This document shows positions 1-50,736 of a stretch of DNA of 50,736 nt, piece after piece. Within the stretch, counting starts at the first letter, position 1. The number at the start of each line of letters is the position of its first letter. A model generated the notes under the pieces. That model was given only the letters and a program-made list of their open reading frames with translations. It had not been told where the DNA came from and made no database searches. Source of the stretch: Candidatus Hadarchaeota archaeon (GTDB lineage: Archaea > Hadarchaeota > Hadarchaeia > Hadarchaeales > JAWBSP01); contig CAYYWO010000007.1 in assembly GCA_964474885.1 (NCBI GenBank), positions 1 to 50,736 of the forward strand, given 5' to 3'. A program made the position numbers and the translations under genes.

Positions 1-55
1 CTGGCTCTCCCGCCACGGGCCGCCCCGTCAACCGGCCTCATGCGGGTTTGAGTGC
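1..55. repeat. 55-bp perfect inverted repeat with the last 55 bp of the window
   Basis: 1-55 is the exact reverse complement of 50682-50736; identity stops at 56/50681. Confidence 0.98.
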
Positions 56-109
56 CCCCGGGCATGATGACTACCTGCAAGCCTCACCCGTCAGGGTGGG
101 GTAGTTGAC
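1..109 (-). mobile_element. Terminus of an IS200/IS605-superfamily element (HEARO/omegaRNA-like structured end), running off the left window edge
   Basis: Minus strand from 109 reads GTCAACTAC-CCCACCC-tgac-GGGTGAG-GCTTG...GGTTGAC: a subterminal hairpin plus an internal GTTGAC (plus 27-32) complementary to the terminal GTCAAC. A second diverged copy sits at 50624-50736. No nuclease or transposase gene lies inside the window. Confidence 0.72.
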
Positions 110-915
110 TCGAGCATGAGTTCCATGACTTCGTCGATGTTTTCGACTTCTCTTATCTCGAGCCCCCATCCCTGGTTCTCGGACCACTCATTCAGATCCA
201 CGACCTCTGGAACATAGGTGGTCCAGGTAAACCACCCTATGCGCCTTGTTACCTGCTCATACATCACGACCTTGCTTTGACCCTTGGGAACCAGCATCAG
301 TTTGGCTCCGTGGGCGGCAGCAGCTTCCGCCTTGTAGAAGACCCCACCAACCTGACCTATGGTCCCATCAGGCTGGATTGTACCAGTGATGACGACATCA
401 GGTTTTATCTGCCTGTTCTCGAGAGCAGCTATCAGGGCGATAGTGGTAGCAGCCCCCGCACTGGGGCCGTCAATGGCTTCGACGGTGATTTCTTTCCCAG
501 GCCCTGCCACCCTGAAGAAGATGTCAACACCCTTTATGCCCACACCATCTTCCGCAACTTCTAATCCAACCTTTTTCGCAGCTACCCTTGCCGCTACCCG
601 GCTGGCTTCTTGGAAGTCGAAGCCGACTAAAGTAGGGTCGATATCCATGTAAAGCCCTCCATGTCCCGGTGCAACCTTAACAGCCAAAGTACAAACGACA
701 CCGAGGGGCTGGCTTCCGGAGGCTACGGCTAGTATATTGATGACTCTGCCTGTCGGTCCAGCCCACTCCAGCAGTTCCTCTTCGCTGAGGGCAGTCTTAC
801 CCTCCAGCGGGATCATGGAAAGTCCATAACCGCAGAGCAACCCTATCAAGAATGCACCAACAAGGGCTAGGTGGCCTATCTTAGCTCTTTTTCGGCGTGT
901 ACGGCGCACACCCAT
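91..915 (-). CDS. Membrane-anchored Lon-like (S16) serine protease, proteolytic domain only
   Basis: N-terminal basic stretch plus TM helix; DGPSAG catalytic Ser motif; ITGTI..DG.IG.VGGV..K (Lys of the Ser-Lys dyad); no AAA+ domain. The C-terminal STTPP is encoded by the mobile-element end. Confidence 0.85.
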   Translation of the reverse strand: MGVRRTRRKRAKIGHLALVGAFLIGLLCGYGLSMIPLEGKTALSEEELLEWAGPTGRVINILAVASGSQPLGVVCTLAVKVAPGHGGLYMDIDPTLVGFDFQEASRVAARVAAKKVGLEVAEDGVGIKGVDIFFRVAGPGKEITVEAIDGPSAGAATTIALIAALENRQIKPDVVITGTIQPDGTIGQVGGVFYKAEAAAAHGAKLMLVPKGQSKVVMYEQVTRRIGWFTWTTYVPEVVDLNEWSENQGWGLEIREVENIDEVMELMLESTTPP

Positions 916-2326: not shown

Positions 2327-3814
2327 TTATCTGACTCCAGCCTTTCTCAGAAGTTCAGAAATGCTTTTATCGATCTTGTTTTGGACCTCATCAAGCGACC
2401 TTCTTCTCTTTTTAAGCTCCCCCCTTCTTTTGAGCAACATCCTCCTAGCCTCAGCTGGATTTGGAGACCCCCTTGTTTTGCGGAACCGAAGGGAGGCAAG
2501 CGGCTCCGCATACTTCTTGATGAAGTCAGGCCTCAGCTTCAGTTTTTGCCCAGCTTTTTCAGAAATTTCCTCCAGTTCTTGAACAGATAGCTCAGTCAGT
2601 TTCCTCCCCTCTTCAGCACACTTCCTCACAGCTTGACCTATGACTCTGTGAGCCAACCTGAAAGGTACCCCGTACTCCAATACGAGCCCTTCCGCCAAAT
2701 CCAGTGCTAGGGCGTAGCTCCCCCTCGACACGGAGAGGCATCTCTCTTCGTTGATTTTCAGAGTAGAGATCACCCCTTTCAAAACTGCTAGGGAGTCTTG
2801 GGTGAGATCGAATATCTTCCATAAGATGGGTTTGGTTTCTTGTAAATCTCGGTTGTAGCCTGTGACCAATCCCTTTAGAATTGAGAAAAGCCCCATACAG
2901 AGCCCTTGGACCTCTGCCGCCCTTGCCCTCATCAGTTCTAAGGTGCAGGGGTTCACTTTTTGAGGCATGACACTGGAGGTGGAAGCATACTCGTCTGAGG
3001 GGGTGACAAATCCGAATTCATTCGAGGACCACAGGATGAGGTCTTCCGCAATCCTACTTAGGTCGCTCATGAGGATGTTGAGGCATGAAGCAACCTCCAG
3101 CATGAAACCCCTCGAGCTTACGGCCGAGAGGGAGTTCTCGACGAGTCCTGAGAATCCCAAGAGTTTGACTGCCATTTCTCTCTTTATGGGAAGACCGGTA
3201 CCGGCAACCGCACAGGCCCCGAGGGGGGAGAGATTGACTCTCTTGAAGCAATCGACCAGCCTGTCGTAGTCCTCAAGCAGATCATCAAACTTGGACAAGA
3301 AATAGTGCCCCAAAGAGCCTATCTGTGCCTGTTGCGTGTGCGTGTAAAAGGGAATCGGTAGCTCAACGCATCCCTCAGCCCTGTGGAGGAACTCTTCAGA
3401 GGTTTTCAGCAGCAGATCGCACGTTTTCAGTAACTCCTTCCTGACTCTAAGTCTGATCGCGAGTGCGACCTGATCGTTCCTGGATCTTCCAGAGTGGATC
3501 TTGCCACCTATCTCGATACCGACTCTCTTAATGACTTCGTTTTCCAAAAACTCGTGCACATCCTCGTAGGGTCCCTCCAGTCTCAGCTCTCCGCTTCTTG
3601 CCTGTTTCAGGAGTCCCCCTAGTACCCTGCAGATTTTCCTGCACTCTCTCTCGGTCAAAACGCCTGCCTCCTTCAGGCCCAAGACATGGGCGAGCGTCCC
3701 CAGGATATCGTCTACCAATATCCTCTCGTCGTCCCGCAAAGAGGAAACGAAATCAAGCGCCTTCGGGCAGAGTCCCCTCGATACTCGAGCCCTGTAAAGA
3801 GACTCTTCGCTCAA
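2327..3814 (-). CDS. argH: Argininosuccinate lyase
   Basis: HSGRSRNDQV, YTHTQQAQ, SSVMPQKVNP fumarase/ASL signature and YNRDLQE; adjacent to argG. Confidence 0.96.
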   Translation of the reverse strand: MSEESLYRARVSRGLCPKALDFVSSLRDDERILVDDILGTLAHVLGLKEAGVLTERECRKICRVLGGLLKQARSGELRLEGPYEDVHEFLENEVIKRVGIEIGGKIHSGRSRNDQVALAIRLRVRKELLKTCDLLLKTSEEFLHRAEGCVELPIPFYTHTQQAQIGSLGHYFLSKFDDLLEDYDRLVDCFKRVNLSPLGACAVAGTGLPIKREMAVKLLGFSGLVENSLSAVSSRGFMLEVASCLNILMSDLSRIAEDLILWSSNEFGFVTPSDEYASTSSVMPQKVNPCTLELMRARAAEVQGLCMGLFSILKGLVTGYNRDLQETKPILWKIFDLTQDSLAVLKGVISTLKINEERCLSVSRGSYALALDLAEGLVLEYGVPFRLAHRVIGQAVRKCAEEGRKLTELSVQELEEISEKAGQKLKLRPDFIKKYAEPLASLRFRKTRGSPNPAEARRMLLKRRGELKKRRRSLDEVQNKIDKSISELLRKAGVR

Positions 3815-4524
3815 CGCTCCCCCCCTTCACCGGCGGTTATGAGCGGGAAAACCTCCTCAAAGATAAATCCAACGAAGCTCTCGATAGTCGACCTCGAGAA
3901 GAGCGTTATCACAGAGTTTCTCGTGAGCCCCACTACCATACCTTTGTTCGCGACCTCAAAAACGATGTACCACAGCTTTCCGTGCTTGAGGTACTCCCGG
4001 TAGAGATTGGTGTCCGTCAGGCTCGGGCCCGAGAGCGCAAGCTTCTTTATCCCAGGGATGTCTATCTGATCGAACCATATGAGCTTTGTCGCACCAGGAT
4101 TCGACTCATGTAGTTTCTGGAGGGTCTGGTGGGGAATGTAGGTCTCCACAATGGAGCCGGTCTTAATGAAGAGCACCTCGCTCAGCTTGTTTGCGACGTA
4201 ATCGGTCAGGAGCTTCTTCACCCCTCTGGGTTTTGAGGGGGCGAGTGGGACGAGGAACATCCGGTTCTGGTACTTCTTTATCCAGAAGGGGACTTCCTCG
4301 GTCACGAGGGTTTCAACAAGCCCCCTGCGGTAAAACCTGCTCAGCACGTAATCCTTGGTGAAGATGCCGAAGATAGTATCCTTGCTCAGTTTGAGATCCA
4401 AGATCTCCGTTATGAGCTTCTTGTCCTTGTACGGTTCCTCTTCCCTGAAGTCTTTCAGCTTTCTAGCGATGGTCGTGTAGTCCAGTTGCTCCTTCAGCTC
4501 GTAGACTTTTGCAACTAGTACCAT
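3811..4524 (-). CDS. Hypothetical protein (237 aa), coupled to argH
   Basis: Long ORF with normal composition and a 4-bp overlap with the argH start; no recognisable motif. Confidence 0.7.
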   Translation of the reverse strand: MVLVAKVYELKEQLDYTTIARKLKDFREEEPYKDKKLITEILDLKLSKDTIFGIFTKDYVLSRFYRRGLVETLVTEEVPFWIKKYQNRMFLVPLAPSKPRGVKKLLTDYVANKLSEVLFIKTGSIVETYIPHQTLQKLHESNPGATKLIWFDQIDIPGIKKLALSGPSLTDTNLYREYLKHGKLWYIVFEVANKGMVVGLTRNSVITLFSRSTIESFVGFIFEEVFPLITAGEGGER

Positions 4525-4700: not shown

Positions 4701-4775
4701 CGGGCCCGGTGGGATTTGAACCCACGGTTTGCGGCTTAGAAGGCCGCCGCCTTATCCGGGCTAGGCCACGGGCCC
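4701..4775 (-). tRNA. tRNA-Arg(UCU)
   Basis: GGGCCCG/CGGGCCC acceptor stem, anticodon arm GCGGC-CTTCTAA-GCCGC, T loop GTTCAAATC; no intron, no encoded CCA. Confidence 0.95.
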
Positions 4776-21098: not shown

Positions 21099-21188
21099 CG
21101 CCGGGGAGGGGATTTGAACCCCTGCTCCCCCCATCAGGGGAACCGGATCTCGAGTCCGGCGCCTTGGGCCTGGCTAGGCTACCCCGGC
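21099..21188 (-). tRNA. tRNA-Ser(CGA)
   Basis: GCCGGGG/CCCCGGC acceptor, CCGGA-CTCGAGA-TCCGG anticodon arm, long variable arm, GGTTCAAATCC T arm. Confidence 0.95.
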
Positions 21189-37597: not shown

Positions 37598-37672
37598 GCC
37601 CCGGTAGCTCAGCCTGGTTAGAGCGCACGCTTGGTAAGCGTGAGGTCGCGGGTTCAACTCCCGCCCGGGGCT
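37598..37672 (+). tRNA. tRNA-Thr(GGU)
   Basis: GCCCCGG/CCGGGGC acceptor, CACGC-TTGGTAA-GCGTG anticodon arm, GCGGG-TTCAACT-CCCGC T arm. Confidence 0.96.
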
Positions 37673-50303: not shown

Positions 50304-50660
50304 ATGAATGTCTTGAAGGCCCTCTGTCAGGTGGAGAGGCTGCAGCTGTTAGAGGCATTGAGCCAGGGCCCCCTGCCTCTCTCGGCCCTGAAGCAGGCAA
50401 TGGGAAAGCCGTACTCGGTGCTCCTGTACCACCTCAGGGTCCTGCAGCGAGCGGGCCTGGTCGATCTGATCAGGCTAAAGCCGAAGCTGACGGTCGCCTA
50501 CTTGAAGCGTCACGTCGAGATCCACTGGAAGTGCGGGGAGAAGCCGAAGGTCCTCACGAAGCCCCTCCCCCCGCCAGCCGAAAGCGAGCTGGTGCTGACC
50601 TACTGGCGTCTGCTGGTGAGAAGGTCAACTACCCCACCCAACGATGGGGTTTGCAGGTGA
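50304..50660 (+). CDS. ArsR-like winged-helix transcriptional regulator
   Basis: LKAL....RLQLL..L..GP, YHLRVLQRAGLV. The C-terminal STTPPNDGVCR is encoded by the mobile-element end. Confidence 0.82.
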   Translation: MNVLKALCQVERLQLLEALSQGPLPLSALKQAMGKPYSVLLYHLRVLQRAGLVDLIRLKPKLTVAYLKRHVEIHWKCGEKPKVLTKPLPPPAESELVLTYWRLLVRRSTTPPNDGVCR

Positions 50661-50736
50661 TCATGGTGCTCGAAACTCATCGCACTCAAACCCGCATGAG
50701 GCCGGTTGACGGGGCGGCCCGTGGCGGGAGAGCCAG
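50624..50736 (+). mobile_element. Second copy of the IS200/IS605-type (HEARO/omegaRNA-like) terminus, running off the right window edge
   Basis: GTCAACTACCCCACCC is identical to the left copy; hairpin CCCCACC-caac-GATGGGG; TTGCAGGT; GTTGAC at 50705-50710; the last 55 bp are identical to the left copy. Confidence 0.72.
50682..50736. repeat. 55-bp perfect inverted repeat of positions 1-55
   Basis: Direct comparison of both ends. Confidence 0.98.

Follow-up and report, generated by a model that had tools for sequence, protein, structure and literature searches.

Two contig ends of a Hadesarchaea genome as probable right ends of a tnpB-only IS200/IS605-family element with a predicted guide-RNA scaffold

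Introduction

Both ends of the archaeal contig analysed here are occupied by the same structured repeat in opposite orientations, which raises the question of what kind of element this repeat belongs to and on which strand, if any, it acts as an RNA. The analysed stretch of DNA (50,736 nt; below, the window) is the entire contig C7 of the archaeal assembly G000 (60 contigs, 1.18 Mb, 92% complete). The ends of IS200/IS605 elements use subterminal DNA hairpins, and elements that consist of tnpB only are still filed in this family. Results of our analysis indicate, with a probability that we estimate at about 0.88, that each contig end is the right end of one copy of such a tnpB-only element, the two copies being inverted relative to each other.

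Results

Repeat copies at the contig ends

The repeat copies at window positions 1-109 (plus strand) and 50624-50736 (minus strand) are inverted with respect to each other and have one sharp end, at ...GGTAGTTGAC, past which their sequences are unrelated; the similarity stops exactly at 109|110 and 50624|50623. On the minus strand, positions 1-109 have the sequence GTCAACTACCCCACCC-loop-GGGTGAGGCTTGCAGGT...CCGGTTGAC, exactly the hairpin pattern that a first-pass annotation of this DNA had described. The second, diverged copy that it had placed at the opposite end is there as well: the reverse complement of 50624-50736 aligns with 1-109 at 83% identity (109 vs. 113 nt) and shares the boundary. 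Bases 1-55, common to both copies, are identical at 55 of 55 positions, and the differences of the right copy from the left one comprise a 6-nt insert (GATGAG), a terminal loop shorter by 2 nt, and hairpin substitutions. A search of the window with R1, a covariance model of the right end described below, gave no match besides these two ends (Table 1), and no further copy was found in the 1.18-Mb assembly by either BLAST or covariance-model search.

That the identical part exactly equals the assembler k of 55 might be taken to mean that the inverted ends are an assembly artefact, i.e., a chimeric or duplicated contig end. This is extremely improbable, since beyond the identical part the copies continue for 54-58 diverged bases more, to their common sharp boundary, and the same repeat is found inside contigs in related genomes. 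Both copies are real, because their junctions are crossed by independent contigs and unitigs, and the exact identity over 55 nt is a feature of the assembly, arising because the assembler (k=55) broke contig C7 inside the repeat. Among the contig ends of the assembly, nine pairs have exactly shared 55-mers, and a shared 77-mer was found in none. The other ends with exact shared 55-mers (C2-left/C12-left/C19-right, C3-right/C6-left, C4-left/C6-right, C4-right/C5-left, C5-right/C12-right, and C20-right/C33-left) provide hints for scaffolding and mark other repeats.

In sequencing runs X1 and X5, the loose end found at base 109 corresponds, as reverse complement, to the 3' end of contig C2. This contig (L129, about 680-700) stops 2 nt into the same right end, and unitigs of these runs join window-like bases 80-109 to the C2 flank at a lower depth (11.6). 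The C2 junction is a third insertion, possibly a polymorphic one; its empty site had no match in genomes G001 or G002. One more junction, absent from this assembly, was seen in X5. The multicopy family that had been proposed for this archaeon comes down to two copies on the contig and one further junction detected through reads only. In the same two runs, the right end of the left copy also occurs in another version, joined to the same flank and differing from window 77-95 by T84C, C87T, and C92T and by the lack of 1 nt at 77 and of 3 nt at 95; it may reflect strain variation or an exchange between two copies.

Linkage to tnpB and related elements

Intact tnpB genes of two relatives run into the same right end, namely, those of L045 (391 aa; an Archaeoglobi record) and L046 (410 aa; G019, a second genome of the Hadesarchaea order). 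Both proteins contain PF07282 and PF01385, and PF07282 is found also in the tnpB remnant adjoining the right end of the window. The right end of the left copy comprises the tnpB 3' end and most of the predicted omegaRNA scaffold, and it aligns with the right-end copies downstream of the relatives' tnpB. The tnpB stop lies 5-8 nt before the right boundary in the window and in L045, where it is the same TAG, inside GGG-TAG-TTGAC, as at window positions 102-104, and the window tnpB tail matches residues 199-227 of a TnpB-derived ORF of G016, a genome of the same order. The first-pass annotation had put the nuclease gene outside the window, which is correct for nearly all of it, but its last 33 codons and stop are inside. 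Among solved structures in the PDB, the L046 protein is best matched by Cas12f (9nzq, E 3.6e-20, residues 211-349).

A metagenome scan with a TnpB protein alignment yielded 68 loci, and R1 gave 63 matches in 79 sources. In the loci obtained with the tnpB query and oriented so that tnpB is on the plus strand, the R1 matches are on the plus strand, at the 3' end of tnpB, the exceptions being L082 and L059, each with one extra, weaker match away from that end (1208-1324 and 3804-3873, respectively). The weaker second right-end-like matches in these loci (L082 at 1208-1324 and 2532-2665; L059 at 3804-3873) suggest the presence of neighbouring or nested elements. Two other TnpB-like genes of G000, at C2:121647-121847 (open frame of 491 aa) and C2:33772-33870 (389 aa), both contain PF07282. 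They are members of different families, and the protein of the family described here does not match them at E 1e-40.

The two ends of the element are unlike each other and without terminal inverted repeats, and both carry covarying subterminal hairpins (P4 at the right end and the stems at the left end). The left end contains a CCNCAA/TTGNGG stem around a hairpin, with both-side changes in 6 of 14 pairs. Its start lies about 105-125 nt upstream of tnpB, too little for a tnpA gene to fit in between. Conserved TTAAATA and GCATATATGC blocks precede the tnpB start (alignment A8/A9, e.g., L031 1330-1368) and likely represent an archaeal promoter and start region. The Y1 transposase (PF01797) was not found in G000 (92% complete) and is present in G016 and G019. 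The tnpB-only form is, presumably, that of the IS1341-like group. The placement of the window ends among IS200/IS605 structured ends with a guide-RNA scaffold, proposed from the letters, agrees with these findings: the intact tnpB of relatives runs into the same end, and both an IS200/IS605 gene and an opposite-end hairpin are present.

Seven copies of the repeat lie inside contigs of G016. As their pairwise comparison indicates, two are parts of 928-nt elements (L002 and L004, 682-1608; 98.5% mutual identity) that consist of the left end, an internally deleted tnpB, and the repeat as the right end, the truncated tnpB reading into the repeat. Three further elements of about 296 nt (L006, L008, and L009, about 1304-1599) have the left and right ends only, without tnpB, and two are right-end fragments of 170-207 nt. 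The presence of the 296-nt elements and of the 928-nt copies so similar to each other indicates that non-autonomous forms have spread in G016. They resemble miniature non-autonomous IS200/IS605 derivatives (palindrome-associated elements). The window copies are not miniature forms, because they continue into 595 nt or more of a tnpB remnant. The miniature copy of L008 lies about 1.3 kb from the start of a 16S rRNA gene (2881-3099).

Damaged tnpB in the window genome

Contig C22 of the window genome ends with the left end of the element and the first 184 codons of tnpB, 79% identical to the G016 copy. A metagenome contig of 1194 nt (L112) bridges this left end and tnpB 5' half to the window right end: its positions 1-357 correspond to C22:5822-6178 (100%) and its positions 843-1194 to window 50736-50385 (99.7%), and the window right end is followed by 485 missing bases, supplied by L112, and by tnpB on C22. 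Counted from the first base past TCAT to GTTGAC, the bridged copy is 1267 nt long. Following the contig end into the repeat, as the first-pass annotation had advised, leads in this way from the right end to tnpB via L112 and C22. Of the nuclease types that it had considered, IscB/IsrB and TnpB, the latter is the one indicated by the intact tnpB of relatives together with the bridge to C22, and the guide is therefore to be placed 3' of the scaffold; a HEARO/IscB element is not what these data point to.

The bridged tnpB is a pseudogene. It contains an in-frame TAG after ...LHITV and one frameshift, seen with tblastn as a match split between two reading frames, and its first zinc-finger motif reads LPRCV vs. 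CPRCG in intact relatives, with the loss of a cysteine. The indels in the right end of this copy put the usual stop out of frame, and the frame runs past it. Given this damage, the current activity of the element in this genome is doubtful; no intact tnpB of the element's family was found in the G000 assembly. The copies in this genome are probably relics, and the element looks to be decaying here and intact in relatives.

Run X1 contains a unitig of 595 nt that terminates on window 1-55 and has a depth of 69.2 vs. 30.3 for the flank, depth not being equivalent to copy number. A path through L112 that starts at the last 55-mer of C22 and reaches window base 55 has exactly the same length of 595 nt. 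Based on the shared 55-mer and the matching length, both copies seem to share this stretch including the frameshift, i.e., the left copy seems to share the damaged tnpB 3' half. Run X1 and L112 possibly originate from the same sample as the window and for this reason do not constitute independent support. A synteny search for the left neighbour of the left copy gave no match in G000 to the gene beside the G002 empty site. The element copies explain the contig break at both ends and link C22 to the window right end.

Structure of the right end

The covariance model R1 was built from 24 aligned right ends in which four nested helices had been marked by hand, and pairs were counted on the R1 alignment with the pseudoknot added (49 distinct rows, 1836 cells). 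Standard pairs account for 94.1% of the 1836 cells vs. 74.1% in shuffled alignments (a value reached by 0 of 500) and 33-41% with slid partners, and changes on both sides occur in 31 of 40 pairs, the pseudoknot included, vs. 22.4 in shuffled alignments (again 0 of 500 reach it) and 13-16 with slid partners, all these figures being biased towards the structure to which the model fitted the alignment and coming from a region that is also coding. RNAalifold applied to a plain MAFFT alignment already finds P2 and P4, with 10 of 16 pairs compensated.

Both-side changes were found in 8 of 9 pairs of P1 (helix 1), the missing 5' arm of which is seen in L112 as GGCGAGGAGAG, and in 4 of 6 pairs of P2 (helix 2), which is paired in 96.5% of cells and is also recovered by single-sequence folding. 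The pseudoknot (helix 3) is paired in 98.2% of cells, and its strands change together from GTCAAC/GTTGAC to GTCAGA/TCTGAC in 7-8 distinct sequences. For helices 4 and 5, which form P3, the respective counts are 6 of 8 and 4 of 4 pairs, and for P4 (helices 6 and 7), 6 of 7. The P4 loop in most relatives is TTTA, at -20 to -17 from the element end. On the tnpB-sense strand, the alignment contains 133 G-U vs. 36 A-C cells, an excess that favours this strand for the RNA.

Single-sequence folding did not score better than shuffled sequences (z of -1.5 and -1.4 for the proposed strand and -0.5 and -0.4 for the other). A search of the whole window against Rfam at curated thresholds revealed nothing but three tRNAs, and when the cutoff was relaxed to an E of 10 for the ends and three related loci, the sole relevant match was HEARO at noise level. 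Among the public runs searched, there was no RNA run with the window sequence.

Between two covarying stems, 33 of the 49 distinct sequences have a UGA...NNNGA pattern (window 48-70 and, on the minus strand, 50667-50689; alignment A7). A second GA...GA pair is present in 21 of the 24 sequences with a long apical insert, among them the right copy of the window with its apical GA...GA insert. In several members, the motifs AUGAUGA and CUGA occur, which resemble box C and box D. Genes of the L7Ae family are present in G000. The pattern may form a K-turn-like module and, possibly, a putative L7Ae site.

Insertion sites

The motif TCAT is found at the left boundary of the element in 19 of 20 aligned loci, the exception being L046. 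In G002, a genome of the same genus, both sites that are occupied in the window are empty, and there is no target duplication. At the left site of G002, the plus strand reads TTCAT|TCCAGCATGAG where window position 110 begins, and at the right site TCAT, the reverse complement of an ATGA stop/start overlap, directly precedes the homologous bases. Both insertions thus took place directly 3' of TCAT and without duplication, and both are at gene ends because ATGA, which forms a stop or a stop/start overlap, reads TCAT on the opposite strand. Neither window flank was matched in G001.

As a result of the left insertion, the gene of a protein with a Lon_C domain had its own stop cut off and gained five codons (STTPP) from the right end, followed by TGA at 93-91; its homologue in G002 ends with ...LMLE* at the insertion point. 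The last 11 codons (STTPPNDGVCR) of the ArsR-type gene at the other end are likewise derived from the right end. In G002, the ArsR-type gene overlaps by ATGA with the next gene, which is the homologue of a secreted-protein gene on C22. The element sits exactly between these two genes, and the latter is now on C22. Insertions at TCAT have, in other words, rewritten the ends of two host genes and split one gene pair.

Table 1. Features of the window: repeat copies, predicted parts of the scaffold, guides, and genes
Feature	Positions	Strand	Remarks
Right end, left copy	1..109	+	R1 75.4 bits, E 3e-20; model positions 11-124; 5' side cut by contig end
Last 33 tnpB codons (3-101) and TAG stop (102-104)	3..104	+	frame open from base 3
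Stem P1: loop 1-4 (CTGG), 3' arm 5-16	1..16	+	5' arm off contig
Stem P2: 18-22 with 33-37, 10-nt loop with GTCAAC 27-32	18..37	+	covariation
Stem P3: 41-47 with 73-79, K-turn-like cap	41..79	+	helices 4 and 5 covary
P3 cap: GA 50-51 opposite GAU bulge 66-68 and GA 69-70; hairpin 52-56/61-65, loop 57-60		+	putative K-turn
Terminal hairpin P4: 82-89 with 94-101, loop GTCA	82..101	+	covariation
Pseudoknot 3' strand GTTGAC, last six bases of the element	104..109	+	pairs with P2 loop 27-32, directly before predicted guide
Predicted guide, left copy, 16-20 nt, TCGAGCATGAGTTCCATGAC	110..129	+	host DNA, 3' end of Lon_C-domain gene
Lon_C-domain protease-like gene	91..915	-	PF05362, E 2.3e-11
tRNA gene	4701-4775	-	with the other two tRNA genes, sole window matches at Rfam threshold
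tRNA gene	21099-21188	-	as above
tRNA gene	37598-37672	+	as above
ArsR-type HTH gene	50304..50660	+	PF12840, PF01022
Predicted guide, right copy, CTTCTCACCAGCAGACGCCA	50604..50623	-	host DNA, 3' end of ArsR-type HTH gene
Right end, right copy, inverted	50624..50736	-	R1 74.6 bits, E 5e-20; L112 continues into tnpB, C22
P2 of right copy	50719-50715 with 50704-50700	-
Pseudoknot of right copy	50710-50705 with 50629-50624	-

Discussion

The organization of the right end is similar to that of ISDra2 of Deinococcus radiodurans (PDB 8exa, 8h1j), where the scaffold overlaps the tnpB 3' end and stops at the right boundary, the flank supplies the guide, and a short fixed motif lies 5' of the insertion. 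The description of the ISDra2 omegaRNA in PMC10097598 gives a scaffold of 116 nt with four stems, a UUUA loop at -20 to -17, and a pseudoknot of -5 to -3, just before the guide, with a 5' region. The scaffold predicted here is alike in its length (about 116-124 nt), in having several stems and a pseudoknot formed by bases just before the guide, and in its UUUA-type loop 17-20 nt from the end. This match of layout leads us to regard the repeat as a putative TnpB guide-RNA (omegaRNA/reRNA) scaffold that would be read on the tnpB strand, i.e., on the plus strand at the left end of the window. The two systems also differ: the proteins are only distantly alike (E 1.3e-5), the motif is TCAT here and TTGAT in ISDra2, and our element is without tnpA and has an archaeal host. 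Its K-turn-like module is not mentioned for ISDra2 in the passages of PMC10097598 that were compared.

The resemblance to HEARO that the first-pass annotation had noted would make the repeat an omegaRNA of an IscB/IsrB element. At the left end, this RNA would be read from the minus strand, its guide would precede the scaffold on the 5' side, and the nuclease gene would have to lie further to the left. Model RF02033 does give weak matches on that strand (18.4 bits for the window end and 17.1 bits for L002), and GTCAAC...GTTGAC would allow a closing helix to be drawn on both strands. However, these matches, which are not independent because the window end and L002 are homologous, are far below the threshold of 83 bits (E 3.1 and 6.5), every relative has tnpB on that side, encoded on the opposite strand, and the G-U/A-C ratio of 133 to 36 belongs to the tnpB-sense strand. 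The resemblance has to be abandoned, and we consider such an element very unlikely; HEARO/IscB omegaRNAs (RF02033) are comparable in being transposon-borne guide scaffolds of the IS200/IS605 world, but they differ in strand, guide side, and partner protein, and the model match is noise. Equally little speaks for a free-standing family of small RNA genes (e.g., box C/D-like sRNA) unrelated to transposition. The AUGAUGA and CUGA-like motifs within the hairpin and the G016 copies devoid of tnpB would be in line with it, but those copies have the same left end as the tnpB-bearing ones and are therefore deletion derivatives, the tnpB reading frame ends in this very sequence, and two of the sites are empty in a congener.

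Somewhat less improbable, and still quite unlikely, is that the folds serve only as single-stranded DNA ends for the Y1 transposase, with no guide RNA involved. P4 and the left-end hairpin would suit such a role, and no RNA run with the sequence was among the public runs. Four covarying helices and a long-range pseudoknot over about 124 nt go, however, far beyond a transposase hairpin, and UUCG-type loops and GA/GA motifs are features of RNA. The layout agrees point by point with the solved ISDra2 omegaRNA. The roles of DNA end and guide RNA are, moreover, compatible with each other.

If the repeat is a TnpB guide-RNA scaffold, the right end would have two roles, encoding the C-terminal tail of TnpB and, on the same strand, the omegaRNA scaffold composed of P1, P2, P3, P4, and the pseudoknot. 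Transcription out of tnpB would continue into the flank, and the 16-20 nt after base 109 (in the right copy, those before 50624 on the minus strand) would become the guide. RNA-loaded TnpB would cut an element-free site in which TCAT is followed by the guide sequence, and the element would be retained through repair from the occupied copy. Such a cut-and-repair mechanism is established for ISDra2. For the element described here, we infer by analogy that the RNA is made and processed, that the guide has the length given, that TCAT acts as the cleavage TAM, and that homing takes place. The guide role of positions 110-129 is predicted from the TnpB mechanism; the similarity of the copies ends at 109. 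The first-pass annotation had offered as the guide the stretch from 125 to 110 or its complement, and it is the complement, window 110-125 on the plus strand (TCGAGCATGAGTTCCA), that agrees with our prediction, its first guess being on the wrong strand. In the assembly, no second target of either predicted guide was found, i.e., no site with fewer than two mismatches besides the guides' own places.

The K-turn-like motif is possibly a new feature of the element and the sole part of our results likely to surprise a specialist. The scaffold might use its box C/D-like K-turn, in many members with a stacked second K-loop, to recruit L7Ae, in which case the particle would consist of TnpB, omegaRNA, and a host protein; we put this forward tentatively and consider it rather doubtful at present. 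If true, it would mean that TnpB depends on a host RNA-binding protein, which is not described for TnpB. Our literature search for a natural K-turn in a TnpB guide RNA found none, the papers with both terms dealing mostly with engineering or other systems.

The kind of element described here is ordinary and widespread, TnpB being among the commonest genes known. Our search of the literature found no paper on both Hadesarchaea and TnpB. The TnpB of Sulfolobus islandicus is likewise reported as an archaeal, IS200/IS605-family RNA-guided nuclease and has been used for editing (bioRxiv 10.1101/2023.03.06.531077); the hosts here are Hadesarchaea and Archaeoglobi. The results define a TnpB family of hydrothermal-vent archaea by its left end, right end, likely TAM (TCAT), and predicted guide-RNA fold, and the intact members (L045, L046, and many metagenome loci) are candidate compact nucleases, possibly heat-tolerant ones.

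The similarity to Cas12f (9nzq) and to TnpB/Cas12f intermediates concerns the RuvC and zinc-ribbon part of the protein, which provides the best PDB match. Cas12f uses a CRISPR array and a tracrRNA, whereas the gene described here is a transposon gene with defined ends and no array. The L046 TnpB sequence is much closer to the solved Cas12f (E 3.6e-20) than to the ISDra2 TnpB (E 1.3e-5).
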